From NCBI GenBank assembly GCA_964408825.1, contig CAYPAU010000001.1, forward strand, positions 76,789 through 140,788: a stretch of DNA of 64,000 bases, written 5' to 3'. The notes beneath the pieces are model-generated. The model ran no database searches, was not told where the DNA came from, and worked only from the letters and a program-made list of their open reading frames with translations. The translations under genes were made by a program, and so were the position numbers. Positions within the stretch are counted from its first letter, which is position 1. Each line of letters starts with the position of its first letter. Below, piece by piece: positions 62 through 64,000 of the stretch. Source of the stretch: an uncultured Gammaproteobacteria bacterium (lineage in GTDB: Bacteria; Patescibacteriota; Microgenomatia; Levybacterales; UBA12049).

Positions 62-796
62 ATGAAAGGTGTAATTTTAGCAGGCGGTCTTGCAACCAGA
101 CTTAGACCGCTCACTTCGATTACGAATAAGCATCTTCTTCCTGTTTATAACAAGCCAATGATTTTTTATCCTCTTGAGGCTATGGTAAAAGCCGGAATAA
201 AGGAAGTTTTGATAAATAGCTCTCCGGATCATGCTGGACATTTTGCGAATCTGCTTAAATCGGGGGATGACTTTGGGCTCAAGATTTATTATGGCGTTCA
301 GCAAAATGCAAAAGGAATTGCGGACGGCATTTCTTATGCAAGAGAATTTGCTAAAGATGAAAAAATTTTAGTAATTCTTGGAGACAACATTTTTAATACC
401 AACCTTAAACCAACTATAGAAAAATTTGAGAAGAGAGAAAAGGGAGCAGTTATTTATGGAGTAAAGATGTCAACCGGTTCTCAGCAATATGGAGTGATAG
501 AGATCGATGATGACGGAACTGTTTTATCTATTGAGGAAAAGCCACGGAGTCCTAAGTCTGACATAGTGCAAACCGGGATATATATGTATGATGATAGAGT
601 CTTTGATTTTATTGGAAGACTAAAGCCCTCCGCAAGAGATGAACTTGAGGTTACAGATCTCAACAATATTTATCTTGAGGAAGGAACTCTTCAATGTGAG
701 CTTTTGGATTGGTGGGTTGATGCAGGAACATCCTATGACGAACTTTTAAGAGCCAATAATCTAGTTGCCGAGAAAGTCAAAAATGGCGAGTTATAA
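62..796 (+). CDS. rmlA: Glucose-1-phosphate thymidylyltransferase-like sugar nucleotidyltransferase (short RmlA-type)
   Basis: N-terminal motif GGLATRLRPLT and the sugar-nucleotidyltransferase fold; sits next to rmlB. At 244 aa it is shorter than canonical RmlA. Confidence 0.65.
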   Translation: MKGVILAGGLATRLRPLTSITNKHLLPVYNKPMIFYPLEAMVKAGIKEVLINSSPDHAGHFANLLKSGDDFGLKIYYGVQQNAKGIADGISYAREFAKDEKILVILGDNIFNTNLKPTIEKFEKREKGAVIYGVKMSTGSQQYGVIEIDDDGTVLSIEEKPRSPKSDIVQTGIYMYDDRVFDFIGRLKPSARDELEVTDLNNIYLEEGTLQCELLDWWVDAGTSYDELLRANNLVAEKVKNGEL

Positions 797-801
797 ATTT
801 T

Positions 802-1272
802 ATGATTGTTTGTGAATTTGAAAACGGCGGAAAAGGAAATCTTCGACATGTCACAGTTGGCGCAATTGCAATTAATAATAAACAAGAGGTGCTTCTTATA
901 AAACGTGCCAGCTCCCACAGATTTGGAACATATACCATTCCGGGAGGATTCTTAGATCGAGATGAAAACACTGAGAAGGCAACCCTAAGGGAATTAAAAG
1001 AGGAGACAGGATATAACGGTGAAATTGTTAATCTGTTCCGTGTTAACGACAATCCCAAAAGACCCAAGGAAGATCGACAAAATGTTGATTTTTTATATAT
1101 CGTAAAAATAACAAGTGGTAAACCAATGCTAAATAAAGAAGTATCTGAGGTTGGTTGGTTTGACGAAACCAGTCTTCCATCTGAGGAAGAATTTGCATTT
1201 GATCATAGAGACTCGATTCTTAGGTATTTTGATCATCTAGAGCAACCAATCAGTCTTCCAATATTAGGATAA
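802..1272 (+). CDS. Nudix hydrolase, likely a sugar-nucleotide hydrolase (Gmm/NudD-like by context)
   Basis: Nudix box GGFLDRDENTEKATLRELKEETGY; located inside the sugar-nucleotide operon. Confidence 0.75.
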   Translation: MIVCEFENGGKGNLRHVTVGAIAINNKQEVLLIKRASSHRFGTYTIPGGFLDRDENTEKATLRELKEETGYNGEIVNLFRVNDNPKRPKEDRQNVDFLYIVKITSGKPMLNKEVSEVGWFDETSLPSEEEFAFDHRDSILRYFDHLEQPISLPILG

Positions 1273-1273
1273 T

Positions 1274-2284
1274 ATGAAAATTTTGGTGACCGGAGGAGCC
1301 GGTTTTATCGGTTCGAATTTTATAATTTACTGGATGAAGAATCATCCGGATGATTTTGTAGTTAATTTTGATGCCCTAACATATGCAGGAAATTTAGAAA
1401 ATTTAAAGGAAGTTCAAAATAATTCGAATTACTCGTTTGTAAAGGGAAATATAGTTCAATCAAATGAGGTTGCATCTGTGATTGAGGGGGTAGATATCGT
1501 TGTTCACTTTGCAGCAGAAAGCCATGTAGATCGATCTATCTTAGGTCCTCAGCCTTTTATATTAAGCAATGTAGTTGGAACTCAGGTGTTGCTGGATGTT
1601 GCCCGTCAGAACAATGTTAAGCGCTTTCATCATATATCCACAGATGAAGTATTTGGAAGCCTTAATCTTGGTGATTCGAAGAAATTTAATGAACGAACAA
1701 GATATGATCCCAGAAGTCCGTATTCTGCAAGTAAAGCCGGATCAGATCATATTGTGAGAGCATATTACCATACGTATAATTTTCCTATCACTATTACTAA
1801 TTGTTCTAATAACTTTGGGCCCTATCAGTTCCCGGAAAAATTAATCCCTCTTGCTATAACAAATTTACTCGAAAATAAAAAGGTTCCGATATACGGGGAC
1901 GGACTTTATGTAAGAGACTGGCTTTACGTTGAGGACCACTGTCGCGCAATTGAAGTTGTTTTACAAAAAGGAAAGATAGGAGAAACTTATTGCGTAGGTG
2001 GATTAACAGAGGATATTAATAATCTAGAGGTCGTGAAAAAAATAATAAAGATTTTGGGCAAGGATGAAAGCTATATAGAGTTCGTAAAGGATAGACAGGG
2101 GCACGACAGAAGGTATGCTGTTGACTGGTCGAAAATAAAAAATGAACTTGGCTGGTTTCCTCTTCATAGCTTTGACGAGTGGCTTGAGAAAACAATAGGA
2201 TGGTATAAAGAAAATAAAAAATGGTGGCAGGATGTAAAAAACGGAGAATACAAGAATTATTATAAAAAGCAATATGGATCATGA
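1274..2284 (+). CDS. rmlB: dTDP-glucose 4,6-dehydratase
   Basis: MKILVTGGAGFIGSNF Rossmann N-terminus, YSASKAGSDH catalytic motif, 336 aa. Confidence 0.85.
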   Translation: MKILVTGGAGFIGSNFIIYWMKNHPDDFVVNFDALTYAGNLENLKEVQNNSNYSFVKGNIVQSNEVASVIEGVDIVVHFAAESHVDRSILGPQPFILSNVVGTQVLLDVARQNNVKRFHHISTDEVFGSLNLGDSKKFNERTRYDPRSPYSASKAGSDHIVRAYYHTYNFPITITNCSNNFGPYQFPEKLIPLAITNLLENKKVPIYGDGLYVRDWLYVEDHCRAIEVVLQKGKIGETYCVGGLTEDINNLEVVKKIIKILGKDESYIEFVKDRQGHDRRYAVDWSKIKNELGWFPLHSFDEWLEKTIGWYKENKKWWQDVKNGEYKNYYKKQYGS

Positions 2285-2286
2285 CC

Positions 2287-2345
2287 ACCCCTCGTTAAAA
2301 CTCCGGATTGGTCATGCTCCGAAGCTTGCAGTTTAAGTTTTTACA
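2287..2345 (+). repeat. Conserved intergenic motif, copy 1 (rmlB-rmlD spacer)
   Basis: CCTCgTTAAAACTCCGGATTGGTCATGCTCCGAAGCTTgcAGTTTAAGTTTTTA, near-identical to copy 2. Confidence 0.6.
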
Positions 2346-2396
2346 GATTTAGAACAATCAAAAACGATTAATGGAATTAAGTAATAGCGTAGGAGC

Positions 2397-3215
2397 ATGA
2401 AGATAATAGGAACAGGACTTACGGGACTTGTGGGGTCCCGAGTTGCAGAGCTTTTAAAAGATAAATATGAATTTGTAAATTTTAGCAGAAGAAGTGGTAA
2501 TGACATAACTGACAAGAATGAAGTTTTTAATTTTCTAGGATCATCAGACGCGCCCCTCGTAATTCATCTTGCAGCAAAAACAGACGTAGATGATTGCGAA
2601 AAGGATAAAGAAGAAGATAGTAAAATATTGGGATATAAAGATATTAAGGAACAGGAAGAGGAATTTAAAATAAAGAAAACGGCTTGGGCAGTTAATGTTT
2701 TAGGAACAAAAAATATTGTTGACGCATGCAGAAAAACTAAGAAAAAATTAATATACATATCAACCGACTTTGTCTTCGACGGGACAAAAGATTTTTACAA
2801 AGAGGAAGATACCCCAAACCCGATTAATTGGTATGGAAAAACAAAATATGAAGGGGAGAAACTGGTTTCTTCTTCGGAAATTCCGAATGCGATAATAAGA
2901 ATTTCGTATCCCTATAGAGCAAAATTTCCCAAAAAAGATTTTATAAGAGTTTTAATTGATCTTTTGGCAAATGGTAAATCTTTAAGAATGGTAAGCGATC
3001 AGATTATTACACCGACATTTATAGACGATCTTGATTTTGTTTTCGACTATTTTCTTAAAAACCAAACGGAAGGTGTTTTTCACGCATGCGGAGGGGACTC
3101 TCTGACTCCTTTTGAAATAGTAAATAAAATTGCTGAAGTTTTTGGTTTTAATAAAAATTTAATATCAAAAACAATAAGGAAAGAATTTTTCAGAGGAAGA
3201 GCAGAACGCCCTTAA
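2397..3215 (+). CDS. rmlD: dTDP-4-dehydrorhamnose reductase-like protein (RmlD). The annotated ORF ends at an in-frame TAA; the same frame stays open to 3308 (see findings).
   Basis: RmlD-like N-terminus MKIIGTGLTGLVGSRV and an acidic low-complexity insertion. The in-frame continuation ends in an ATGA overlap with ugd. Confidence 0.6.
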   Translation: MKIIGTGLTGLVGSRVAELLKDKYEFVNFSRRSGNDITDKNEVFNFLGSSDAPLVIHLAAKTDVDDCEKDKEEDSKILGYKDIKEQEEEFKIKKTAWAVNVLGTKNIVDACRKTKKKLIYISTDFVFDGTKDFYKEEDTPNPINWYGKTKYEGEKLVSSSEIPNAIIRISYPYRAKFPKKDFIRVLIDLLANGKSLRMVSDQIITPTFIDDLDFVFDYFLKNQTEGVFHACGGDSLTPFEIVNKIAEVFGFNKNLISKTIRKEFFRGRAERP

Positions 3216-3304
3216 CATCTTCTTATGAAAAATGATAAAATTAACAAATTGGTAATAAAATTCAAAAGACTTGAAGAAGGCATTTTAGAAACGAGAAAAC
3301 AAAT

Positions 3305-4594
3305 ATGACAATAACTTTCATCGGCCACGGATATGTTGGACTTGTTACAGCATCCATCTTTGCAGATTTAGGCAATAAGGTTTGGGTGATTGGCAGGGAC
3401 CCTAAGAAAATAAAAGATCTTAAAAAAGGAAAATCTCCATTCTTTGAACCCGGACTTGAAGAACTTGTAAAACGAAATATTAGAGCAAAGAGGCTTTTTT
3501 TTACGCTTGATTATAAGCCTTCAGTTTCGGATTCAGACATAGTTTTCATAGCCGTTGGAACTCCACCGAATAAAACAGGCGATGCAGAACTTCTTGGAGT
3601 TTTCGCCGTTGCGGAAAATATTGGAAAAAATCTGAAAGGTTATACGGTTATTGCTACAAAAAGCACGGTTCCTCCCGGCACAAATAAAAGAATAAAACAA
3701 TTGATAGATGAAGTTAAGCCTCATGAAGCAACATTCGACATCGCATCGGTTCCTGAGTTTCTTCGTGAAGGAACAGCGATTCAAGACACCTTGGCGCCCG
3801 ACAGGATTGTTATAGGAACCGAAAATAAAAGAGCCCAGAATTTGCTTATTGAACTTCATAAGCCTATCGACAGACAGTTTGTTCTAACAAATCTTGAGAC
3901 AGCGGAGCTCATTAAATATGCATCAAATTCATTTTTGGCCACTAAAATTTCATTTGCAAATGCGATAGCAAAATTATCAGAACTAGTCGGAGCAGATGGT
4001 ATTGCCGTTATTGAAGGACTAGGTCTGGACAAAAGGATTGGCAATGAATTTCTTGCTCCAGGTCCTGGCTACGGCGGAAGCTGTTTCCCAAAAGACGTAA
4101 AAGCCCTAATTGCAATCGCCAAGAATTATGATTATAGCTTTGCTTTACTTGATGAGGTAGAAAAAATTAATGGACAGGCAAAGCGCGATATCGTTAGAAA
4201 AGCAAGAAAATTGCTGACAGATTTAAACAAAAAGACCATTGGAATATTGGGTCTTTCCTTCAAACCCAATACCGATGACATGCGGGATGCTCAGTCTGTC
4301 GATATTATAGAAATGTTAAAGCAAGAAAGAGCAAGTATTAAAGCTTTTGACCCTCAAGCTATGGCAAATGCAAAAAGAATCATAACTAACGTTGAATTTT
4401 GCGATAACGTTTACGATGTAGCCAAGGGATCAGATGCACTTATTATTATTACAGATTGGAACGAATTTAAAGAACTTGATTTTAAAAAAATAAAAAAACT
4501 CATGAAAAACCTTATTATTATCGATGGAAGGAATATTTATAATCCTGAAAAAATGAGGGAATTAGGTTTCACCTATGTTGGAATTGGAAGATGA
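3305..4594 (+). CDS. ugd: UDP-glucose 6-dehydrogenase
   Basis: ITFIGHGYVGLVTA NAD-binding N-terminus, GGSCFPKD catalytic Cys motif, 429 aa. Confidence 0.85.
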   Translation: MTITFIGHGYVGLVTASIFADLGNKVWVIGRDPKKIKDLKKGKSPFFEPGLEELVKRNIRAKRLFFTLDYKPSVSDSDIVFIAVGTPPNKTGDAELLGVFAVAENIGKNLKGYTVIATKSTVPPGTNKRIKQLIDEVKPHEATFDIASVPEFLREGTAIQDTLAPDRIVIGTENKRAQNLLIELHKPIDRQFVLTNLETAELIKYASNSFLATKISFANAIAKLSELVGADGIAVIEGLGLDKRIGNEFLAPGPGYGGSCFPKDVKALIAIAKNYDYSFALLDEVEKINGQAKRDIVRKARKLLTDLNKKTIGILGLSFKPNTDDMRDAQSVDIIEMLKQERASIKAFDPQAMANAKRIITNVEFCDNVYDVAKGSDALIIITDWNEFKELDFKKIKKLMKNLIIIDGRNIYNPEKMRELGFTYVGIGR

Positions 4595-4595
4595 G

Positions 4596-4651
4596 CCTCC
4601 TTTGTTAAAACTTCGGATGGATCATGTCCCCGAAGCTTTAGTAATTTTTAT
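4596..4651 (+). repeat. Conserved intergenic motif, copy 2 (ugd-rmd spacer)
   Basis: CCTCctTTGTTAAAACTTCGGATGGATCATGTCCCCGAAGCTTtAGTAATTTTTA, with a CTTCGG/CCGAAG stem. Confidence 0.6.
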
Positions 4652-4702
4652 GAGTAGAACATTTTGGAAAATAAAAAAAAATACGAGAGAGCGCGAAGGG
4701 GC

Positions 4703-5662
4703 ATGAAGAAAGTTTTGATAACGGGAGTCTCTGGTTTTGCAGGCAGTTTCTTAGCAGAAAGGCTTGTTTCAGAAAATAATGTAGATGTATATGGCGTATA
4801 TTTAAATGAAAAAACTCTTTCTAACTTAAGTTCAATAAGAGATAGAGTAAAACTTCTAAGGCTTGATCTGTCCGATGGAAAAGGAGTTTTAAAGCTCATT
4901 GGGGAGGAAAAACCAGATTATATATATCATTTGGCAGCCTTACCTTCTTCCGGGGAAAGCTTTGAGATGCCCTACCACACTTTTCAAAGTAATGTACAGC
5001 CTGAAATAAATATTCTTGAAGCTTTGCGTAAATTAGATTTAAATTCTACTAGAGTGATGATTGTCTCATCCGCTGAAATCTATGGGTTGGTGGCCAAAAA
5101 AGATTTGCCAATTGATGAAAATACCCCCTTTAATCCGACTAACCCTTATGCAGTATCAAAACTTGCTCAGGATTTTTTAGGTCTTCAATATTTTTTGTCA
5201 CATAAACTTCAGATTATCAGAGTTCGTCCCTTCAATCATATTGGTCCAAGACAATCTTCTGATTTTGTTGTTTCAGCTTTTGCAAAAAAAATTGCAGAAA
5301 TAGAAAAAGGAAAAAGAGAGCCAATTTTACCGGTGGGTAATTTAGAAAGTTCAAGAGATTTTACAGACGTTAGGGATATGGTAAGAGCCTACCATCTTGC
5401 TATAGAAAAAGGGGAAGTTGGAGATGTATACAATATCGGATCAGGAAAATCTTACAAGATTTCTGAAATTCTTAGGAGATTATTATTGCTTTCAAGAGTA
5501 AATATCAAAATTGAAACTGATAAAATTCTCCTAAGGCCTTCAGATAATCCCATTCTTCTATGCGATAAAACGAAGTTCTCAAATCTTACAGGTTGGGAGT
5601 TAAGGATTCCAATAGAAAAGACACTGAAAGATACGCTTGAGTATTGGAGAAATATAATTTAA
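4703..5662 (+). CDS. NAD-dependent epimerase/dehydratase, GDP-4-dehydro-6-deoxy-D-mannose reductase (Rmd)-like. The ORF-track start is 4664; MKKVLITG at 4703 is the likelier start.
   Basis: GVSGFAGSFLAERL Rossmann motif, YAVSKLAQD, FNHIGPRQS; adjacent to gmd. Confidence 0.55.
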   Translation: MKKVLITGVSGFAGSFLAERLVSENNVDVYGVYLNEKTLSNLSSIRDRVKLLRLDLSDGKGVLKLIGEEKPDYIYHLAALPSSGESFEMPYHTFQSNVQPEINILEALRKLDLNSTRVMIVSSAEIYGLVAKKDLPIDENTPFNPTNPYAVSKLAQDFLGLQYFLSHKLQIIRVRPFNHIGPRQSSDFVVSAFAKKIAEIEKGKREPILPVGNLESSRDFTDVRDMVRAYHLAIEKGEVGDVYNIGSGKSYKISEILRRLLLLSRVNIKIETDKILLRPSDNPILLCDKTKFSNLTGWELRIPIEKTLKDTLEYWRNII

Positions 5663-5674
5663 AATCTATAAAAC

Positions 5675-6649
5675 ATGGCAAAAAAAGCTTTGATTACCGG
5701 AATTACTGGGCAAGATGGTTCATATCTTGCATAACTATTATTGTCCAAGGGCTATAGGGTTTTTGGGCTAACGAGACGGACAAGCACGATAAATTTTGAG
5801 CGAATTAAAAATATCGAAGATAAGATAACTTTAATTCAAGGAGATCTTCTCGATCAAAGCTCATTGTCGTCTGCTATTTTGGAATCAGAACCAGATGAAG
5901 TTTACAATCTCGCTGCTCAATCATTTGTTAAAACCTCCTGGAATCAGCCTGTTTTAACCGGTGAATTTACAGCATTGGGAGTAACAAGGCTTCTTGAAGC
6001 AATTCGTGCAGTTAATCCTAAGATTAAATTTTATCAGGCTTCTTCTTCTGAAATGTTTGGTAAGGTTACCGAAACTCCCCAGAAAGAAACTACAAGATTT
6101 CATCCAAGAAGTCCATACGGAGTTGCAAAGGTTTATGGACATTATATTACATTAAACTATAGAGAAAGTTATGAAATGTTTGCATGTTCTGGGATTTTCT
6201 TTAATCACGAGTCTCCAAGACGAGGACTCGAGTTTGTAACAAGAAAAATAAGTCATGCAGTTGCCCGAATCAGTCTTGGAAAACAAAAGATACTTGAGCT
6301 TGGCTCTCTTGAGCCAAAAAGAGATTGGGGATATGCAGGAGATTATGTTGAAGCAATGTGGCTTATGCTGCAGCAAGAAAAGGCGGATGATTTCGTAATA
6401 GCAACCGGAGAAAACCACAGCGTCAAAGAATTTGTTGAGCTTGCTTTTGCCTTCGTTAAGATAAAAGATTGGCAAAAGCATGTTAAGTCAGATGTAAATG
6501 AACATTTAAGACCGGCAGAAGTGGATTATCTTATAGGCGATGCAAGTAAGGCAAGAAAAGTTCTGGGATGGAAACCTGAGACAGGCTTTAAAGAATTAGT
6601 TGAGCTTATGGTAGAAGCTGATATTGAAAGGGAAAAGGGCACTAAGTGA
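5675..6649 (+). pseudogene. gmd: GDP-mannose 4,6-dehydratase interrupted by an in-frame TAA at 5732-5734 (codon 20). The ORF track only sees the TTG-initiated remnant 5741..6649.
   Basis: The frame from ATG 5675 reads [31 protein letters not shown]. Canonical GMD reads ...GSYLAEFLLEKGY..., so a conserved GAA (Glu) is TAA here. Downstream GMD motifs are present. Confidence 0.7.
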
Positions 6650-7617
6650 TAATGAAGACAGCTCTTGTGGCCGGAGGAGCAGGTTTTATGGGCTCTCATC
6701 TTTGCAAAAAACTCCTCGATAAAAATTTCAGGGTAATATGCTTAGATAATTTAGTAACCGGAAATGATGGTGTCATTAAAAAATTTCTTTCCGCAAAAAA
6801 TTTTAAATTTTTAAAAGCAAATGTTAGTGATAGCAAAGATCTAAAAAACTTAAATGATGTAAGTTTTATATTTCATTTGGCCTCTCCCGCATCTCCGAGT
6901 CAAAAAAGTCCGAGAAGTTATCTTGCCTTCCCCATAGAGACTCTTCTAGCAAACTCATTGGGCACTTATAACTTACTCAATATTGCAAAAAATTCAAATG
7001 CAAAATTTCTTTATGCGTCTTCGTCTGAAGTTTATGGAGATCCAAAGGTTTCTCCTCAGGGAGAAGATTATTTTGGAAATGTAAATCCAGTTGGAATTCG
7101 TTCGGTCTACGATGAAGGAAAAAGATTTGGTGAGGCAATCACTATGGCATATGTTAGAAAATTCAACACAGACGCAAGAATAATAAGAATATTTAATACT
7201 TTTGGTCCAAACATGAGGAATGATGATGGACGGGTCATCTCAAACTTTATAAATCAGGCGATTAGAAACGAACCTCTTACAGTTTATGGGGACGGAAAAC
7301 AAACCAGAAGTGTATGCTATATAGATGATCTTATTGAGGGGTTACTGCTTTCAATGTTTTCCGATAAAACAAAGGGAGAAGTTATTAATCTTGGAAATTC
7401 TGAAGAAAAAACAATTATTGAGCTCGCAAACCTAATAAAAAAATTGACCAATTCTAATTCCGAGATTATTTTTGAGCCACTTCCCGATGATGATCCTAAG
7501 CAAAGAAAGCCTAACATAGAGAAAGCAAAAAGACTTCTTTCTTGGAAACCAAAAGTGGATATTGACCAAGGACTTTTAGAAACAATAGAATATTTTGAGA
7601 AGATAAAAAATAGCTGA
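6646..7617 (+). CDS. UDP-glucuronate decarboxylase (UDP-xylose synthase, UXS/ArnA-C-like)
   Basis: [14 protein letters not shown], the [15 protein letters not shown] motif, and a short-chain dehydrogenase fold; follows ugd. The GTG/ATG start overlaps the gmd stop. Confidence 0.75.
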
Positions 7618-7697
7618 ATGGCTAAATAGCTAGACGGTTAAGATTTGTACACTTTGAAAACTATTTGACCGTTCAGCCATTTTAGCTATTCTGTTTT
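7617..7697. promoter_or_regulatory. Long imperfect inverted repeat in the UXS-GT2 spacer (possible terminator or attenuator)
   Basis: GAATGGCTAAATAGCTAGACGGTTAAG ... TTGACCGTTCAGCCATTTTAGCTATTC. Confidence 0.3.
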
Positions 7698-8831
7698 ATG
7701 AAGGTAGCTATTATAAACCCCACTTATAACGAAAAAGGTAATATTGACCGCCTTATCCCAACTCTTGAGAACGAAATTTTTCCAAAAATAAAAAATCACG
7801 ATATGCACATTTTAGTTGCAGATGACAATTCTCCAGATGGAACAGAAAAAGAAGTAAGAGAACTTATGGGGAAATGGAAAAACATAGATATCTCCTCGGG
7901 CGAGAAGCTTGGCTTGGGTGCGGCATATATAAGAGGAATGACCTACGCAATTGAGAAGATGGGGGCAGATGTTGTTTTTGAAATGGATGCTGATCTTCAG
8001 CATGATCCCGAAAAAATACCCGAATTTCTCAAAAAGATTGACGATGGATACGACATGGTTATCGGCAATAGATACAGTGATGGAGGATCGATTCCCAAAA
8101 ATTGGCCAATTTTGAGAAAAATATTTTCAGTTGTAGCAAATCTCTTTGTAAGAACCATATTTATGAAATTTTCAATCCATGATTGGACAGGAGGATACAG
8201 GGCTCTTAAAAAAGAAGTATTTCTAAGAGAAAAAGAAGAATTAACAAATTATAAAGGTTACATTTTTCAGATATCTTTTCTTCACAAAGCCGTAAGAGAC
8301 GGATTTAAAATAGGTGAGGTTCCTTTCCACTTTTCAGATAGAAATCTTGGTAAATCAAAAATTGCTCCCTTAGGATACATTATTGAGGTATTCAAATTTG
8401 TAATTTCAACCAGAATGAAAGAAATACTCCTTGGAAAATTTGGTAAATTTCTGGTAGTTGGGGGTACGGGTTTTATAATTAATGCAGTAGTATTAAGAGT
8501 TCTGGTTGAGATTTTCGGATGGGATGCTTCACTAGCTAATTTAGTTGGTGCGGCTTTGGCAATATTTTCTAATTATAATTTTAATAATCTCTGGACATTT
8601 GGGGAGAATAAGGCATCTACTATTTCAAGTTACTTTATCAAGATGGCACAATTTTATCTAACTTCCTCGTTTGGCGTTATCTTTATCCAAACAGGAACAA
8701 TATTCCTGGGACAGCGCCTAATCGGAGAAAATTATTACTTTATATATTTTTTAATAGGCACCTTCTTCCTTCTTATTTGGAACTTTACGGTATATAATAA
8801 AATCATCTGGCGCAAGAAGGCTCCTAAATGA
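7698..8831 (+). CDS. GT2 polyprenyl-phosphate glycosyltransferase (DPM1/ArnC-like) fused to a C-terminal GtrA-like membrane domain
   Basis: ADDNSPDGTE and EMDADLQHDP motifs; the C-terminal GtrA-type transmembrane region reads FLVVGGTGFIINAVVLRVL...SNYNFNNLWTF. Confidence 0.8.
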   Translation: MKVAIINPTYNEKGNIDRLIPTLENEIFPKIKNHDMHILVADDNSPDGTEKEVRELMGKWKNIDISSGEKLGLGAAYIRGMTYAIEKMGADVVFEMDADLQHDPEKIPEFLKKIDDGYDMVIGNRYSDGGSIPKNWPILRKIFSVVANLFVRTIFMKFSIHDWTGGYRALKKEVFLREKEELTNYKGYIFQISFLHKAVRDGFKIGEVPFHFSDRNLGKSKIAPLGYIIEVFKFVISTRMKEILLGKFGKFLVVGGTGFIINAVVLRVLVEIFGWDASLANLVGAALAIFSNYNFNNLWTFGENKASTISSYFIKMAQFYLTSSFGVIFIQTGTIFLGQRLIGENYYFIYFLIGTFFLLIWNFTVYNKIIWRKKAPK

Positions 8832-10426
8832 AAGTTTCCCTAAAGAAGTTTAAAGCTTTTGTTTTAAATCCCAATTTAGTGATTATTGTTATTCTTGTTT
8901 TAGCCTCCTTTTTGAGACTATACAGAATACAGGATTACATGACCTTCCTTGGAGATGAGGGAAGAGATGTACTGGTTGTCTATAATATTCTCCATGGGAA
9001 TTTAACACTCCTTGGCCCGGCTGCTTCGGTAGGAGGTTTTTTCCTTGGTCCTATTTATTACTATTTTATGGTCCCCTTTCTGTGGATGTTTAATTACAAT
9101 CCTGTCGGACCGGCTATTATGGTAGCACTTTTTGGGGTCGCTACGGTTTATCTACTTTATAGATTTGCATCCGAGCTTTTCAATAAAAGAATAGGTCTTA
9201 TTGCAGCACTTTTATACTCAATTTCTCCTATCGTGATAGCATATTCTCGTTCTTCCTGGAATCCAAATCTAATGCCGTTTTTCTCACTTTCTTCCCTGTA
9301 TGTTTTATATAGAGCTGTAAAAATTAACAGCTGGAAGCTTTTTCTACTTTGCGGATTTCTTTTGGGAATTTCAATGCAGCTTCATTATCTTGCATTTTTC
9401 TTAGGTGCTGTTGTGGCTTCTTATATTTTAATAGTCGATCTTTTAGGAAAGTTTTATGCAGGGAAAAAGAGCTTGGATTTTGTTAAACAATACTTTCTGG
9501 TTTTCATAGGTTTTCTAATTGGTTTGTCTCCTTTTCTTGCATTTGAAGCAAGGCATGGTTTTCAAAATATAACAAGTATTTACGGTTTTGTATTTAAATC
9601 GGACGAGACCGGAGTCGGTCTTTCTTTCTTCTCAAGTGTTTATGATGTTTTCTTTAGGCTATTTGCGAGGCTTGTCGCAAATTTTCCGGCGTATGATCAA
9701 ATTGCGGCAGGACAACACTCAAATATAGCGCTATGGTATGTCTTGGCGTTTCTCCTGGGACTTAGCTCGCTTTCTATTTTGGTTTATAAATTTATTAAAA
9801 ATTTTCCTTATTCTAAAGAAAAGTACAAAAAAAACTATGGTGAATTCCTGAAAATTTACTTGCTATTTGCATGGCTTGGCGTTGGCATAATTCTCTTTGG
9901 GTTTTATAGAAAACCGATTTATGAGTATTATTTTGGTTTTATGTTTGTTTTACCCTTTATTCTTTCGGCCCACGCCTTAGATTTTCTTAATTCAAAAAAG
10001 ATTCTATTAAAAATAACTTCAGTTATAGCTTTTATCGCACTTCTTGCTGTTAATCTTTACGGCATGCCATTTAAATATGAGCCGAACAGACAATTAAAGC
10101 AGGTCAAAACCATTGCAGAGTTTGTTTTGAATAAAACAGAAAGTAGGCCGTTTAACTTTGCCTTGATTACCGGCGGGAATTCGGATCATGCCTACCGCTA
10201 TTTTTTCAAGCTAAGAAATCAGGATCCGGTAGCAATTGAGCCTCCGGTAACTGATCCCGCGAGAAAAACGGTTACTGACCAACTTTTGGTGGTTTGTGAA
10301 GGACCATGTCAACCTCTAGGAAACTCTCTTTGGGAAGTGGCAGGGTTTGGAAGAGCGGAAATCGCAGGCGAGTGGAACATCATTGTCGTAAAAGTATATA
10401 AACTGGTCCACTATAAGGAAAAGTAG
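8828..10426 (+). CDS. ArnT/PMT-family (GT-C, GT39/GT83-like) polytopic membrane glycosyltransferase
   Basis: 532 aa with many transmembrane helices and an N-terminal loop with a DE motif (FLGDEGRDVLV); directly downstream of the ArnC-like GT2. Confidence 0.6.
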   Translation: MKVSLKKFKAFVLNPNLVIIVILVLASFLRLYRIQDYMTFLGDEGRDVLVVYNILHGNLTLLGPAASVGGFFLGPIYYYFMVPFLWMFNYNPVGPAIMVALFGVATVYLLYRFASELFNKRIGLIAALLYSISPIVIAYSRSSWNPNLMPFFSLSSLYVLYRAVKINSWKLFLLCGFLLGISMQLHYLAFFLGAVVASYILIVDLLGKFYAGKKSLDFVKQYFLVFIGFLIGLSPFLAFEARHGFQNITSIYGFVFKSDETGVGLSFFSSVYDVFFRLFARLVANFPAYDQIAAGQHSNIALWYVLAFLLGLSSLSILVYKFIKNFPYSKEKYKKNYGEFLKIYLLFAWLGVGIILFGFYRKPIYEYYFGFMFVLPFILSAHALDFLNSKKILLKITSVIAFIALLAVNLYGMPFKYEPNRQLKQVKTIAEFVLNKTESRPFNFALITGGNSDHAYRYFFKLRNQDPVAIEPPVTDPARKTVTDQLLVVCEGPCQPLGNSLWEVAGFGRAEIAGEWNIIVVKVYKLVHYKEK

Positions 10427-28665: not shown

Positions 28666-29742
28666 TTAGTCTATTATTGTCTCGGGGTAGAAGGAGGACC
28701 AGGAGTACCAGAAGGCCTGCGTATGGAAAGGTGCCTCCAGTTTTTTTCCTTTTAAGTTTCCAGAGACAGCATTGCCATTGTAATCCCAGACACTTTTTGT
28801 TTCCTTGTCGATAAGTTTTCCGTCTCTTATTTCAAAGGTTAATCTTTTCCCATCAATAAATCTCCGAAAGATTTTATGCGAACCAAGTTCTTCATCGAAA
28901 ACTACCAAAACAGCCCATGGGCCCACTACGGAATTAATTACCTTTTGCCTCTCAATAAAACTCGTTGGAAAAAACTTTTCTTCTTTTCCTATTACAATGC
29001 CCAGTCCATTTGCAAATTCAGAGAGGCGCGCGTCCGGTTGTTTTCCCGGAGGAAGAGAAGCGAGTCCTATATTTGAATTTTTATAGATAATATATCGACT
29101 GCGATAAAACTCAATATCTTTTTGCGGGGAGAGGACCAGAAGATCTCTGCGGTCTTTGATATTTTTCCATTTTGTTTGTTCTGTAAAGCCTATTGGTTCA
29201 AGTCTTTTTCCAGAAAATTTTCCGCGGAAAGATTCACCAGTCAGTTGTAGCCAATACGTATCACTTACCTTGTCATACATAATTAAATTCCCGTAATATA
29301 ATGCTCCTAAAACTCCAAATTCAAGAGTTTCTCCCTCAAGCTCTCTTGAGAAGGCCGCCGGAGTGTTTGAAAGAAGACAATAAGTTATGGCAACTGGTAT
29401 CCCTTCGATATTATCATTTACGATATGGTGGAAGGTCATAATAGAAATAGGGTAGACATAAGTCTTATTTTTTGCTTGAAAGAGAAAAACGTCTTCGTCG
29501 TCTTTTATGAAACTACCAGCTTCTTTTGAATCCACATACTTAGGGTTTACAATATCGGGGAATAAATCCTTCTCAGGCCCTCCCCACATCTCCTCAGCGT
29601 TTAAATTTGTTTTGTTAGAAAATTGAGAAAGCTTTTCAGAAGCTTTAATTGTTTGAAAACTATAGAAATCCCATAAAAAAATTATTCCCACTAAAATAAG
29701 AAGAAGAGTTATACGAGCTATATACTTTCTCAACATAAGCAC
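28666..29742 (-). CDS. DUF3179 domain protein (N-terminal transmembrane helix)
   Basis: VAITYCLLSNTPAAFSRELEGETLEFGVLGALYYGNLIMYDKVSDTYWLQ matches the DUF3179 core pattern. Confidence 0.55.
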   Translation of the reverse strand: MLMLRKYIARITLLLILVGIIFLWDFYSFQTIKASEKLSQFSNKTNLNAEEMWGGPEKDLFPDIVNPKYVDSKEAGSFIKDDEDVFLFQAKNKTYVYPISIMTFHHIVNDNIEGIPVAITYCLLSNTPAAFSRELEGETLEFGVLGALYYGNLIMYDKVSDTYWLQLTGESFRGKFSGKRLEPIGFTEQTKWKNIKDRRDLLVLSPQKDIEFYRSRYIIYKNSNIGLASLPPGKQPDARLSEFANGLGIVIGKEEKFFPTSFIERQKVINSVVGPWAVLVVFDEELGSHKIFRRFIDGKRLTFEIRDGKLIDKETKSVWDYNGNAVSGNLKGKKLEAPFHTQAFWYSWSSFYPETIID

Positions 29743-46132: not shown

Positions 46133-46996
46133 TCATAAGTTTTTAAAGGCGTATTCCCTGCTTGATCGAACTACATATCCTACGGTTGGGGGAGCAAAAT
46201 GCGCTCCTATAAGAAGGATTTCCTTGTCGGTAATTTCTTCCAATAATTTCCTGCGTGTTTCTATAGCTTTGTCCGGATAAGTATCGTATTCTATTGTCCA
46301 TTCGGGATTTGCCAACTGACAAGGATGATGAATAAAATCTCCCGAAAATAAAGCATTTTTGCCTTTTGATTCAATTTTTAAACTAACATGTTCCGGTGTA
46401 TGTCCGGGCGCAGAGATTAGTTTCAAATTCTTATCTATCATATAATCGGATGAGATAAATTTTCCAAGCCCTGCATCCACCACGGGTTTTACTGAATCAT
46501 CAAAGGCGTCTTTATCATCGGCAACTTCACGTTCTGGATTAGTCTTCCAGTAATCATATTCTTTCTGCACAAATAGATATTCAGCATTTGGGAATGTAGG
46601 TTTCCAAACCCCATCGATCAATTCCGTATTCCATCCCACGTGATCAGTATGAAGATGTGTACTAATAACCACATCTACTTTTTCTTTTGCAACTCCCAGT
46701 TTTCTTAGTTTATCTAAAAAATCCGTTTTTAATCTTGACCATTCCGGAAGATCCGTGCGAATTTTGTCATTGCCATTTCCCGTATCAACTAAGATATTCT
46801 TACCTTCCGATTTGATGAGAAATGAAGCAACAGTAGCTTTAAATTTACCATTTTTGTCTGCAAAATGAGGAAATAGCCATTTTATTCTTCTGATTTTTTC
46901 GGGGGTTGCCGGTTTTATCCCATCCTGCAAAACTTTCCCTGCATCGGGAATTTCGATAATTTGGAAAATCTCAACATCACCAATTTTCCACTTCAT
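46133..46996 (-). CDS. MBL-fold metallo-hydrolase (AHL-lactonase-like)
   Basis: HLHTDHVGWN zinc-binding motif and GHTPEH. Confidence 0.7.
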   Translation of the reverse strand: MKWKIGDVEIFQIIEIPDAGKVLQDGIKPATPEKIRRIKWLFPHFADKNGKFKATVASFLIKSEGKNILVDTGNGNDKIRTDLPEWSRLKTDFLDKLRKLGVAKEKVDVVISTHLHTDHVGWNTELIDGVWKPTFPNAEYLFVQKEYDYWKTNPEREVADDKDAFDDSVKPVVDAGLGKFISSDYMIDKNLKLISAPGHTPEHVSLKIESKGKNALFSGDFIHHPCQLANPEWTIEYDTYPDKAIETRRKLLEEITDKEILLIGAHFAPPTVGYVVRSSREYAFKNL

Positions 46997-47499: not shown

Positions 47500-48129
47500 T
47501 TATCGGAAGGAAACTTTTTCTCCTGTTTTTAGAGATTTAAATTCAATTTCTCTGTCAGAAAAGTATTTTACAAGTCTTTGATAAAAAGCTTCTCTTGCTT
47601 TTTCATTCCAATGCCAGTCATGAATTGGAATTATGTATCTTGGTTTTAACAAAAGCGCATAAGCAACAGATTGAGTTAAACTACACCATGGGGCTTGTAC
47701 CGGAAGAGCCAAAACCTCGACAGTCTTTTTGAATTGTAAAGAATCTCCAGGATGAACGATCTTGTTAAATAATGTAAATACGATATTTTTTGGAGGGATA
47801 ATACCAAAAACTTCTTCGTGCGGACTTTCTTTAAAAGATATGCCCACATCTGCGTCTGATGATGCATCGATACTTTCCTTTTTTAATATAGACACTACAG
47901 AATCGCTTGAAATAATCTTTACATTAGGAAACTTGTTTATTATATCTTTAATGAATGGGAGATACATATGATCAGGATGTTCATGAGTAATTAAAATGTA
48001 ATCAAGCTTTGTAAGCTTGTCTAGATTAAGCCCGCCCTCTTCGTAGGTGTAATTGCCTGGATCAATAAGGAAAACCTTATTATTTTCTTCAATGAGTAAG
48101 CATGAATGAATATGTTTTGAAATAATCAT
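47500..48129 (-). CDS. MBL-fold metallo-hydrolase
   Basis: ITHEHPDHMY (HxHxDH) motif. Confidence 0.7.
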   Translation of the reverse strand: MIISKHIHSCLLIEENNKVFLIDPGNYTYEEGGLNLDKLTKLDYILITHEHPDHMYLPFIKDIINKFPNVKIISSDSVVSILKKESIDASSDADVGISFKESPHEEVFGIIPPKNIVFTLFNKIVHPGDSLQFKKTVEVLALPVQAPWCSLTQSVAYALLLKPRYIIPIHDWHWNEKAREAFYQRLVKYFSDREIEFKSLKTGEKVSFR

Positions 48130-51745: not shown

Positions 51746-54136
51746 ATGTACGAGAAAATCCGCTTGTTTTCCTTTCGGAACAAGATTTTTTTATTTATAG
51801 TTCTAATTGTTTTATTTTTCTTCTGGCCCGTTTTTAAAGGCGATATTCCTTTTCCTGGAGATACGCTTGTAGGATTTTATGAACCTTATAAAGCTTATCC
51901 AATACTGGGTTTTTCTCCCGGGAGTGTACCTAATAAAGCACAGGGACCGGATGTTATAAAAGAACTGTTCCCATGGAAAAATTTTGTCATAGAGTCTTTA
52001 AGGCAAGGACAGGTTCCTTTTTGGAATCCTTACAATTTTTCAGGAAATCCTCTTATGGCAAATTTTCAATCGGGGACATTTTACCCTCCTAATGTTATTT
52101 TTCTCATTTTTCCTTTCACGATTTCCTGGACAATCTTTATTCTTCTTATTCCAATTTTGGCTTCTTCTTTCACCTACCTTTTCCTGCGAGAGCTAAATTT
52201 AAGTAAAACCTCAAGTTTTTTCGGAGGCATTGTTTTTGCATTTTCTTCCTATATGGTTGTTTGGCTTCAATATGGAAATATAGGTCATACCTTGTTATGG
52301 ATTCCGCTGGGACTTTTAATAACTGAAAAATTAATAAAGAAATTTGAATGGAAATTTTTATTTTTTCTAACTCTTATTTTATGGTTTTCTATCCTCGCAG
52401 GGTATATTCAAGGCTATTTCTATTCAGCGAGTCTAATATTTGCATATTTTCTTTTTAAAGGTTTTACGGAAGGAAAGATTAATCTCAGAAGATTCTTGTA
52501 TTTTATAACTGCATTAATTTCTCCAGTTGCTCTTTCTCTTTTCCAGATCTTGCCCACGATTGAATTATTTAATGCATCTTCAAGATCGGACTATACTCTC
52601 TCCCAAATCCAAAATTTACTTAATCCCTGGTGGTACGCAATAACTGCTATAGCACCTAATTTTTTCGGAAATCCGGCAACATTTAATCATTGGTTCTGGG
52701 GAACTTATATTGAAAGAGTTTCATACATTGGTCTTGTTCCTTTTATTCTTTTTTTGTCCGCTGTTTTATCCTTCAAAAGAAGAAAAGAAAAATTATTCTT
52801 CGGGGTAGTTGCAATACTTAGCTTCATTATATCACTTGATCTTTTTATAACAAAATATTTTTTTAAAATACCAGTTCCTATTATATCAACAGCCGTACCG
52901 ACCAGAATTCTGAGTCTATTCCAATTCTCCGCGGCGATTCTTTCAGCTTTTGGGCTTGAATATTTTTTGAAAAATCAAGGAAAGAGAAAATTTTACATTG
53001 CTACATTTATCACCCTTTTTCTTATTGGTCTATCATGGATGCTCGCATTTTTCGGAGGAGAAATCTTTCAGATCGACCCAGTAAATCTATCAATATCTAA
53101 AAAAAATTTAATTATTCCCACTTTTCTAGCAATTGCTTTTCTCTTAGTGATTTATATCTGGTTTAAAACTAAATCAAAATTAACTATTTTTGCAATTTTA
53201 TTACTTACTATTTTTGATCTATTTTATTTTTTCCAAAGAATTACCCCATTTTCACCTCCTGAGTTTACTTATCCTGAGACACCAGTTGTTAGGTATCTTA
53301 AGGAAAATGGTTCAATAAACAGATTTTGGGGATATGGTTCAGGATATATCGAAAGCAATTTCCAACTAATGGATAAGACTTTTTCACCGGAAGGGAATGA
53401 CCCTTTGCATATTAGGACATACACAGAGCTTCTTTCCTCATCTAAAAATGGAAAGCTTTCAGAGAATCTTCCTCGTCCGGATGCCAATATTGAAAGAGGT
53501 TTTGGAGAGAAAAATCTGCGCGAAAATAAATATCGTCAGAGATTGCTTAATCTTTTGGGAGCAAAATATGTTCTCCATAAGACAGGCTCAGATTCTCCTG
53601 ATTACACTACTTTTCCCGATAGAATTTATCGGTTGGTACAAAGTGACGGATATTATCAAATTTATGAGAATAAAGAAGTTTTGCCAAGATTTTTCCTAAC
53701 GGGAGATTATACAGTTGAGGATGATGAGGGAAAAATTATATCCCTTATTTATGATGAAGACATAGATCTTAAAAAAACCTTAATTCTTAAGGAAGACCCC
53801 AAAATCAATATTGATAAAAATTCAAAAGGGGTAGCACAGCTTATAAATTACTTACCAAATAAGGTTTCTGTTAAGACAAAAAGTAATGGAAATAGTTTAC
53901 TATTTATATCGGATACCTATTATCCCGGGTGGGAAGTAAAAATCGATAATACGCCCTCACAGATTATACTTTCTGATTATGCATTCAGAGCCGTACCAGT
54001 TGAGGAAGGCGAACATATTGTAGAATTTTTATATAGACCAAAGAGCTTTTACAAGGGTTTAACTCTCTCCCTTTTTAGTTTAATTATTTTGGCTCTTTTT
54101 TTATCTTATGTCAGGAATCTTGAAAAAAAACTTTAA
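51746..54136 (+). CDS. YfhO-family membrane protein (GT-C-like glycosyltransferase)
   Basis: 796 aa; WNPYNFSGNPLMANFQSGTFYPPN and about 13 transmembrane helices plus a C-terminal extracytoplasmic domain. Paralogous to 62106..>64000. Confidence 0.6.
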   Translation: MYEKIRLFSFRNKIFLFIVLIVLFFFWPVFKGDIPFPGDTLVGFYEPYKAYPILGFSPGSVPNKAQGPDVIKELFPWKNFVIESLRQGQVPFWNPYNFSGNPLMANFQSGTFYPPNVIFLIFPFTISWTIFILLIPILASSFTYLFLRELNLSKTSSFFGGIVFAFSSYMVVWLQYGNIGHTLLWIPLGLLITEKLIKKFEWKFLFFLTLILWFSILAGYIQGYFYSASLIFAYFLFKGFTEGKINLRRFLYFITALISPVALSLFQILPTIELFNASSRSDYTLSQIQNLLNPWWYAITAIAPNFFGNPATFNHWFWGTYIERVSYIGLVPFILFLSAVLSFKRRKEKLFFGVVAILSFIISLDLFITKYFFKIPVPIISTAVPTRILSLFQFSAAILSAFGLEYFLKNQGKRKFYIATFITLFLIGLSWMLAFFGGEIFQIDPVNLSISKKNLIIPTFLAIAFLLVIYIWFKTKSKLTIFAILLLTIFDLFYFFQRITPFSPPEFTYPETPVVRYLKENGSINRFWGYGSGYIESNFQLMDKTFSPEGNDPLHIRTYTELLSSSKNGKLSENLPRPDANIERGFGEKNLRENKYRQRLLNLLGAKYVLHKTGSDSPDYTTFPDRIYRLVQSDGYYQIYENKEVLPRFFLTGDYTVEDDEGKIISLIYDEDIDLKKTLILKEDPKINIDKNSKGVAQLINYLPNKVSVKTKSNGNSLLFISDTYYPGWEVKIDNTPSQIILSDYAFRAVPVEEGEHIVEFLYRPKSFYKGLTLSLFSLIILALFLSYVRNLEKKL

Positions 54137-62131: not shown

Positions 62132-64000
62132 AATTCAAAATCTTTTATTTAAGTTTTGGCCGCTACTATTTATAGTAATTGTCTGGTCTGTTTTCGCAAG
62201 TCCGTATTTTTTAAAGAATCTTGTTCCGTTCCCCTCAAATTACCTTGTTAATTTTTTTCCGCCCTGGGCATCATATGGAGAATTTGCAGGGCCTGTAAAA
62301 AATAATGCAATGCCGGATATTATATCCCAGATTTATCCTTGGAAAAAACTGACCATAGACTCCCTTAAGAGTGGCGAAATTCCTTTTTGGAATCCTTATA
62401 GTTTCTCCGGAAATCCCCATCTTGCAAATTACCAATCGGGAGTTCTCTCCCCTTTTAATCTTATTTTTTTTATACTTCCGTTTGTTGATGCATGGAGTGT
62501 CCTTATTTTACTTGCGCCCCTTCTCTCGGGTTTTTTTACTTATCTTCTTATGAGAAGTTTAAATGTCTCGAAATTAGGATCAACTTTAGGCGGTATCGTA
62601 TTTATGTTTTGTGGTTTTATGGTAGTATGGATGGCTTATGGGACATTATCTTATGCTATACTTTACCTTCCCTTAGCGTTTTATGCGATTCAAAATTTTG
62701 CAAATAGCAAAAAAATTAGATATTTAATACTCCTTTCTCTAACAATTCCTTTTTCTTTTTTTTCGGGTCATTTTCAAATAAGTTTTTATTTTCTAATCTC
62801 AATATTTGTTTTTTTACTCTTTAGGATCTATAAAGAAACACTTAAAACCAAATTTTTTCTTACAACAGCACTGTTTACAGGCATTCTTTTATCTATGCCT
62901 CAGCTTCTACCTTCCTGGGAACTTTATACGCATTCTATAAGAAAGGCAATTTTTCGCTTAACGGAGACAGTACCAATAGGGTATATAATTACATCCTTTG
63001 CTCCTGATTTTTATGGCAATGCCGTTACCCGCAATGATTGGTACGGACATTATGCCGAGTGGGCTTCTTTTGTGGGAATAATTTCTCTTATTCTTGCCAC
63101 AATTTCTTTTCTTAAGCCAAAAAAGGAGATTATATTTTTTGGGATTTTAGGTCTTGCATCACTTCTTCTTAGCCTTCAGACTCCACTTGCTGAATTAATT
63201 ATCAATCTTAAGATACCAGTCGTTTCAACAAGTGCCCTATCAAGAATAATAGTAATTTTCAGTTTTTCGGCAGCAGTTCTTGCAGGATATGGACTGGATA
63301 TTCTTAAAGAATATATAGTAAAAAGCAAATCAAAAAGAATAATTGTTGTATTTTCCGCCTGGATAGTTTTTATCTTTCTAATTTGGACATCTCTTTTCTT
63401 TTTCCCTCTTTTGCCACCCGAGAAGATACTTATAGCAAAGCGAAATATGATACTTCCAACACTTATCTTAACCCTGGGGTCTCTTACTGTTCTCACGTCC
63501 TTTTATATAAGAAAATTTGCTTTAGTTTTTTTATTTGGACTTTTGATTCTTACCTCCTTGGATAGTCTAAGGTTTGCTCAAAAATGGATGCCGTTTGATC
63601 CTAAAAAATATGTTTTTCCTACCCCCCCCGTTGTAAAAGCTCTTCAAAAAGAAACAAGAGGAGTTGACAGAGTTTTTGGAAATATAGGCGGAGAGCTTGT
63701 AAATTACTACAAACTTCCCGGAGTTGAGGGATATGACCCGCTATATATTGAAAGATACGGAGAATTTTTAAGAAGTGGAGTCGTGGGACATTTCGCTCCA
63801 CCTGAGAGATCTGTTGTAAAGTTGGGAAGAAGCGGGGAAAATACAGATAAGATTATAGATCTGTTGGGTGCTAGTGTAATTTTCCATCCAAATGCTGACA
63901 CCGGTCAGGAGTGGGCGTATCCAGTTTGGAAAAATACCGATAGGTTTGTCCCCATTTATAAAGATGGAAGTTTTCAACTTTACAGAAACAATACTGCTCT
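62106..64000 (+). CDS. YfhO-family membrane protein, second paralogue; partial, running off the window end
   Basis: Open frame from ATG 62106 (MQKSKIQVKIQNLLFKFWPLLF...) with PFWNPYSFSGNPHLANYQSGVLSPFN matching the first YfhO. No stop before 64000. Confidence 0.55.
   Translation, partial: MQKSKIQVKIQNLLFKFWPLLFIVIVWSVFASPYFLKNLVPFPSNYLVNFFPPWASYGEFAGPVKNNAMPDIISQIYPWKKLTIDSLKSGEIPFWNPYSFSGNPHLANYQSGVLSPFNLIFFILPFVDAWSVLILLAPLLSGFFTYLLMRSLNVSKLGSTLGGIVFMFCGFMVVWMAYGTLSYAILYLPLAFYAIQNFANSKKIRYLILLSLTIPFSFFSGHFQISFYFLISIFVFLLFRIYKETLKTKFFLTTALFTGILLSMPQLLPSWELYTHSIRKAIFRLTETVPIGYIITSFAPDFYGNAVTRNDWYGHYAEWASFVGIISLILATISFLKPKKEIIFFGILGLASLLLSLQTPLAELIINLKIPVVSTSALSRIIVIFSFSAAVLAGYGLDILKEYIVKSKSKRIIVVFSAWIVFIFLIWTSLFFFPLLPPEKILIAKRNMILPTLILTLGSLTVLTSFYIRKFALVFLFGLLILTSLDSLRFAQKWMPFDPKKYVFPTPPVVKALQKETRGVDRVFGNIGGELVNYYKLPGVEGYDPLYIERYGEFLRSGVVGHFAPPERSVVKLGRSGENTDKIIDLLGASVIFHPNADTGQEWAYPVWKNTDRFVPIYKDGSFQLYRNNTA

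Follow-up and report, generated by a model that had tools for sequence, protein, structure and literature searches.

In a 64,000-nucleotide stretch of contig CAYPAU010000001.1 (positions 76,789 to 140,788; hereafter the window), from an uncultured bacterium of the Patescibacteriota (Levybacterales, UBA12049), a gene for an RmlD-like nucleotide-sugar reductase is interrupted by an in-frame TAA near its 3′ end. We think it probable, although well short of certain, that this codon is a real and recent nonsense mutation that truncated a gene formerly 303 codons in length. The open reading frame (ORF), which encodes an extended short-chain dehydrogenase/reductase (SDR), runs from 2397 to 3215 on the + strand and specifies 272 amino acids, as in the public record. 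Its TAA at 3213–3215 (+) occupies codon 273, with the proline codon CCT before it and a C after it. Past the TAA the frame reads HLLMKNDKINKLVIKFKRLEEGILETRKQI, a tail of 30 open codons (3216–3305, +), and terminates at a TGA (3306–3308) that overlaps the ATG (3305–3307) of the downstream gene, ugd, to form ATGA (3305–3308, +). The original prediction, made from the letters of the DNA, had placed the stop, the 30 further codons, and the overlap at these positions, and both the sequence and the ORF list agree with it.

An open run of 30 codons is by itself no proof of former coding; estimated from the base composition of the window, its chance is ≈11%, and the window ORF list contains no ORF of at least 40 amino acids on the strand opposite 3216–3304. 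This chance figure would suit a reading in which the gene naturally ends at 3215 and 3216–3304 is unrelated spacer that happens to be open, as would the spacer that precedes ugd in some relatives, such as the locus designated L004. We nevertheless regard that reading as extremely improbable in view of the tail itself. Scored against a profile built from the last 30 alignment columns of 33 relatives, the tail reaches 36.3 bits, and the maximum among 2000 shuffles is 12.7, which confirms the proposed homology of the extension to the C-termini of its relatives. When the same profile was run against the six-frame translation of all 64 kb, the tail site was the sole significant match (22.7 bits; next best, −2.4). 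The family-profile score, 464.8 bits for the truncated protein, climbs to 502.5 bits (+37.7 bits) on read-through, the match to the Pfam RmlD_sub_bind profile crosses the stop (protein residues 85–296, profile positions 66–278 of 287), and alignments to solved RfbD structures likewise continue through it. The tail aligns without gaps to the consensus of the 33 relatives, RPFHLALKNDKIxKLGIxMKTFEEGLxEIKxQL, and retains all three residues that are invariant in the family (K278, N279, and I282). It departs at two nearly invariant positions, G286V and M289F, and is 63% identical to the family consensus, compared with 74% for the body of the protein, and ranks third lowest of 34 sequences. This divergence falls inside the range shown by intact relatives. 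We considered it as a sign of relaxed selection on the tail and set it aside as not decisive because intact relatives spread equally.

The relatives are uniformly full length. Among the matches listed from a search of 5.8 billion proteins with the read-through translation as the query, 119 of 120 homologs are 286–359 amino acids long and cover 98–100% of the query; they come from Levybacteria, Microgenomates, and other Patescibacteria, and the sole protein of 272 residues is the window's own product. That exact protein (P0001) has one record only, from an NCBI contig of 148,023 bp. The 303 residues of the full span 2397–3308, proposed earlier as the usual RmlD length, fall within this size range. 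At the DNA level, we examined tblastn alignments to 85 related loci, drawn from 80 species genomes plus metagenome contigs. In 84 of them the alignment passes the stop column without an in-frame stop, and in the remaining one it is cut by the end of the contig. The residue at that column is mostly phenylalanine (F 71, S 5, Y 3, and one each of M, H, L, C, and E), encoded by TTT in 54 loci, TTC in 17, TCC in four, TAT in two, TAC in one, and five other codons found once each; among the 33 aligned relatives the column holds F 28, S 4, and L 1. No relative ends at the equivalent of position 3215.

A further comparison is with L001, a locus from a JGI metagenome that is syntenic with the window gene for gene (rmlA, Nudix, rmlB, RmlD-like, ugd, epimerase, gmd, UXS-like SDR, and GT2/GtrA). 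There the RmlD-like gene is intact at 302 amino acids. It reads CCT TCC CAA where the window reads CCT TAA CAT, and its 3′ end, CAA TTA TGA, forms the same ATGA junction, with a 4-nt overlap with ugd. In L004, by contrast with the spacer reading, the 85-nt spacer follows a complete RmlD-like gene of 305 amino acids. The suggestion that the TAA is a premature stop within a formerly longer gene is therefore supported by both the homology of the tail and the full-length relatives, and the locus has what defines a nonsense-truncated gene: an in-frame stop where full-length orthologs have a sense codon, with homologous sequence beyond it. The view of the ATGA overlap as the standard arrangement holds only in part. 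The overlap is common, as 43 of the 85 related loci (L001 included) terminate in ATGA, but it is not universal, as L004 illustrates.

The protein is a clear member of the Pfam family PF04321, RmlD_sub_bind (190.1 bits against a cut-off of 27), yet even when read through it scores 175.9 bits against the rmlD equivalog model TIGR01214, below the cut-off of 224.05. Because of this shortfall, the defensible name from sequence is RmlD-like reductase rather than RmlD proper, and the earlier designation as RmlD stands for the fold and the family membership but not for equivalog status. The GxxGxxG cofactor loop (GTGLTGLVG, residues 5–13) and the catalytic residues S122/T123, Y146, and K150 (the STD and YxxxK motifs, in columns that are invariant or nearly so in the family alignment) are all encoded before the stop. 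When the read-through protein was modeled with AlphaFold (pLDDT 94, pTM 0.91), it showed the RmlD fold, with 1vl0 and 3sc6 as its best matches in the PDB (E about 7e-24, TM 0.82–0.89) and MAT2B also ranking high. In this model the tail contributes helices at residues 280–284 and 292–302 (pLDDT 89–92) together with a bridge residue at ≈277. A charged, Lys/Glu-rich insertion of ≈25 residues, EKDKEEDSKILGYKDIKEQEEEFKIKK (residues ≈68–93, window positions 2598–2680), is modeled as helices; it is a feature of the family, and solved RmlD structures and a few relatives (P0043 and P0093) are without it. The gene is adjoined by rmlA-like and rmlB-like genes. No rmlC (PF00908, the 3,5-epimerase) appears in the operon gene lists of the window neighborhood, L001, L004, or L005, although no dedicated scan of the whole window or genome was made for it. 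For this reason the end product of the dTDP branch of the operon (window positions 62–10426, and its counterparts in L001 and L004) may not be L-rhamnose.

We propose that the ancestral gene encoded a 303-codon RmlD-like nucleotide-sugar reductase whose TGA at 3306–3308 overlapped the ugd start as ATGA, and that the TAA replaced a codon of the Phe/Ser/Tyr type, the immediate ancestor probably being TAT/TAC, TTA, or TCA, each one step away. Translation would then end right after the conserved Arg271-Pro272, and the product would be without the bridge residue at ≈277 and the final two helices of its substrate-binding domain. In the Salmonella RmlD, the C-terminal domain is the one that binds substrate, and Glu292 of its 299 residues helps to bind the Mg2+ ion of the dimer (review PMC9415975). 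Since the tail is modeled as part of the fold and the corresponding domain of the Salmonella enzyme binds substrate, the 272-residue product would most likely be inactive or unstable. The tail at 3216–3305 is now either untranslated or translated via reinitiation only. The rest of the gene bears no sign of decay: the read-through protein is 57–67% identical to its relatives, and the intact L001 protein is 51–59% identical to largely the same set. Because neither the body of the gene nor the tail has decayed, the lesion, judged from sequence, is either very recent or not real.

The RmlD-like gene is not the only interrupted gene in the operon. A second premature stop had been noted in gmd, a gene of 324 codons (5675–6649, +), and it is borne out here. 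From the ATG at 5675, the frame meets a TAA at 5732–5734 (+; codon 20), which is again followed by C and falls at the glutamate of GQDGSYLAE. This position is Glu in 63 of 63 orthologs and an in-frame stop in none; L001, where gmd is intact at 324 amino acids, has GAA, and the TAA is a single step from this invariant codon. Read through, the protein scores 428.7 bits against TIGR01472, above the cut-off of 415, and is 79–88% identical to its orthologs, the same range that intact orthologs show among themselves. The public record instead has a product of 302 residues that starts from TTG 5741 and is without the GxxGxxG cofactor loop. A G:C>T:A signature shared by both stops was considered and rejected, as it holds for gmd (GAA>TAA) but the ancestral codon in the RmlD-like gene cannot be inferred from its relatives, which have TTT, TTC, TCC, or TAT.

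Errors, too, would be expected to appear as a pair of nonsense codons in genes that are perfectly conserved in all other respects, and the chief rival to a real nonsense mutation is that both TAA codons are consensus base errors (from low coverage, strain mixture, or polishing) and that the real RmlD-like gene is intact at 303 codons. We hold this to be a serious possibility, if a doubtful one. Both interrupted genes are otherwise conserved like intact orthologs, and the tail keeps all of its invariant residues. Surface-glycan operons often vary among strains, which raises the likelihood of a faulty consensus there. Only one assembly represents the organism, the flanking proteins are all singletons of the same contig, and nothing confirms the base. 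An exact DNA pattern spanning the stop, in which any codon was allowed at the stop position, had no match in collections of genomes and metagenome contigs, and an index that links proteins to contigs has no entry for the 272-residue protein. These points weigh against a real mutation. Two others weigh against an inactivating one: the loss of function of the 272-residue product is a prediction, and there may be another copy of the gene elsewhere in the genome, of which the 64-kb window is the part seen.

On the other side, if two substitution errors had both created stops in a space of 2.5 kb, many more silent ones should surround them, systematic error excepted, and modern assemblies do not typically err by single-base substitution. 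The length of the contig, 148 kb, suggests adequate coverage. No other disrupted gene was found in the 64 kb, the rest of which is tightly packed with intact ORFs. Five pairs of ORFs that share a frame were candidates for further split genes (8828/10430, 15020/15959, 59493/60423, and 48279/49035, and 18682/17725 on the minus strand), and a Pfam scan identified them as separate genes. A 1.9-kb gap apparently free of ORFs at 62132–64000 was likewise rejected, as an ORF occupies it and continues past the window boundary. The two lesions, the only ones found, are separated by 2.5 kb within one glycan operon, a clustering more in keeping with relaxed selection on a single pathway than with random error. 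Taken with the stop in gmd, a real nonsense mutation in the RmlD-like gene suggests that the strain may have just lost, or be losing, the glycan made by the operon.

The stop could also be real without silencing the gene. Enzyme might still be made by leaky readthrough of the Pro-TAA-C context or by a restart at the in-frame ATG at 3225–3227 (+), a candidate reinitiation codon, in which case pieces of 272 and 27 residues would have to assemble. A following C and a C-terminal proline weaken termination in Escherichia coli, and both in-frame TAA codons precede C, a base that follows just three of the 33 genuine TAA terminators in the window. Each stop has a possible start codon close behind it (ATG 9 nt past the stop in the RmlD-like gene; TTG 6 nt past the stop in gmd), reinitiation at ATG 3225 would also keep ugd coupled, and neither the tail nor the remainder of gmd has decayed. 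Even so, we judge this explanation very unlikely. Both release factors recognize UAA, which is the least leaky of the stop codons, and two TAA-C contexts would arise by chance with a frequency of ≈0.03, given base composition, so that they are weak evidence. Were gmd to restart at TTG 5741, its product would lose the GxxGxxG cofactor loop. Nor does the site have the hallmarks of programmed readthrough. The stop is not a conserved recoding site, as it is present in none of the 84 informative loci and none of the 119 listed homologous proteins; the predicted RNA fold of 3190–3330 is no better than that of shuffled sequences (z = 0.27), giving no downstream structure; and no suppressor tRNA is encoded in the window, where the only tRNAs are tRNA-Gln(CUG) and tRNA-Glu(CUC). 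A literature search on readthrough in Patescibacteria found nothing relevant.

A more speculative version, to which we give very little credence, would have both TAA-C codons real and tolerated, either because leaky termination or restart (at ATG 3225 and TTG 5741) maintains a low level of enzyme or because nonsense alleles switch off the glycan at the level of the population. If it were true, the two apparent pseudogenes would represent a regulated or balanced state and not decay. Reassignment of TAA to an amino acid in this organism would also account for two in-frame TAA codons in conserved genes, but this is extremely improbable. TAA serves as the predominant true stop codon of the window, terminating 33 of 57 other genes, whose lengths match those of their orthologs, and for that reason we conclude that it has not been reassigned. 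The residues at the two sites also differ, being Phe/Ser/Tyr at one and an invariant Glu at the other, and the window encodes no tRNA with a UUA anticodon.

A real nonsense mutation in the RmlD-like gene could affect its neighbor as well. The gene ugd (3305–4594, +) is an ORF for a 429-residue protein of the UDP-glucose/GDP-mannose dehydrogenase family, with orthologs bearing UDPG_MGDP_dh domains in L001, L004, and L005. There is no clear Shine–Dalgarno sequence in the 20 nt upstream of its start, ttagaaacgagaaaacaaat, and for want of one its translation is probably coupled, through the ATGA, to that of the RmlD-like gene. Release of ribosomes 90 nt before the ugd start would be expected to weaken this coupling. 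Bacterial ribosomes can reinitiate after termination, and a restart at ATG 3225 might carry them on to the ATGA junction and so preserve the coupling. A promoter-like match at 3212–3241, which includes the TAA, was also considered; we do not take it as evidence because such matches are common in this AT-rich DNA (12 found, 7.6 expected).

Other junctions of the operon contain a conserved intergenic element of 113–135 nt that lies between sugar-nucleotide genes. In the window it occurs at the rmlB/RmlD-like and ugd/epimerase junctions (2281–2400 and 4591–4706, both +). Copies are flanked on both sides by ATGA, formed by the stop of the upstream gene and the start of the downstream gene. In L001, which is without the element, the genes at both of these junctions simply overlap by the 4 nt of ATGA. 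Further copies are found in L004 (5877–6004 and 8290–8402), L009 (6208–6322), L036 (6273–6407), L037 (6160–6278), L041 (1664–1781), L055 (8162–8280), L058 (1292–1414 and 2675–2795), L071 (1117–1247), L072 (1469–1598), and L027 (732–829), and overall only about 10 of 82 loci carry the element. A structure supported by thirteen copies has 20 base pairs, with 94.6% of cells paired and compensatory changes at nine pairs, and its pairing statistics are all far above those of shuffled and slid controls. A hairpin stands directly after the stop codon, and a long-range helix pairs UCAUGCYUC with GRAGGRGCAUGA, which is the Shine–Dalgarno sequence and AUG of the downstream gene; at the RmlD-like gene, 2311–2319 pairs with 2392–2400. 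The element has no Rfam match at E ≤ 1. From these comparisons, it looks like an undescribed RNA that sequesters start sites and is possibly mobile.

The second copy bears on the annotation of the gene that follows ugd. Its listed ORF of 332 amino acids, which begins at TTG 4664, is probably mis-started over 4664–4702, as the orthologs are 317–318 residues long and begin at the equivalent of ATG 4703 (MKKVLITG), the ATG of the element's 3′ ATGA. A third spacer in the operon, at the junction of the UXS-like and GT2/GtrA genes (7618–7697), is unrelated to the ATGA-bounded element; it holds an inverted repeat, GCTGAATGGCTAAATAGC with a partner resembling GCTAAAATGGCTGAAC, and L001 has a gene overlap at this junction. 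Elsewhere in the window, many genes have a TATAAT-like hexamer 6–10 nt upstream of the start codon and no Shine–Dalgarno sequence, for example, upstream of 48279 and 29810 and at the minus-strand genes 47500–48129, 46133–46996, and 28666–29742. This placement suggests that leaderless mRNAs, or mRNAs with very short leaders, are frequent in the organism. The ORF cut by the window boundary (62132–64000, + strand, frame 1) follows a block of GT2 glycosyltransferase genes, has at least 622 codons, and is a 36%-identical paralog of the 796-residue protein encoded at 51746–54136.

The finding is of use chiefly for annotation: the 272-residue protein and the 302-residue gmd product in the public record should both be flagged as truncated or interrupted, and metabolic reconstructions of this genome should count neither pathway as intact without confirmation from reads. 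If the stops are real, they record a strain of Patescibacteria shortly after the inactivation of two branches of a single glycan operon, which bears on surface variation in these episymbionts, albeit as a single anecdote.

Set beside known systems, the window gene shares with RmlD/RfbD (PDB 1vl0, 3sc6, and 1kbz; PF04321; TIGR01214) the extended-SDR fold, the N-terminal GxxGxxG, the STD and YxxxK motifs, and a place next to rmlA and rmlB, and its tail contains the C-terminal motif RP..(S/L).L...K and the terminal helix. It differs from them in its position under the TIGR01214 cut-off, its ≈25-residue charged insertion, its truncation at codon 273, and an operon neighborhood in which no rmlC is listed. 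The junction with ugd resembles termination–reinitiation coupling at ATGA, in that the ancestral TGA overlaps the ugd ATG as it does in the 43 relatives, but in the window the upstream ribosomes would stop 90 nt early, and coupling is presumably broken or kept by the restart at ATG 3225 only. The locus is an instance of ordinary truncation or of base error, and it calls for no new mechanism. Surface-polysaccharide genes disrupted by nonsense codons are familiar from the inactivated O-antigen clusters of Yersinia pestis, Shigella, and E. coli K-12. Like the young pseudogenes of such clusters, the window has a single lesion in an otherwise intact sugar-nucleotide gene, more than one lesion per cluster, and a downstream portion that is still recognizable; unlike them, it belongs to an uncultivated lineage of Patescibacteria known from one assembly.

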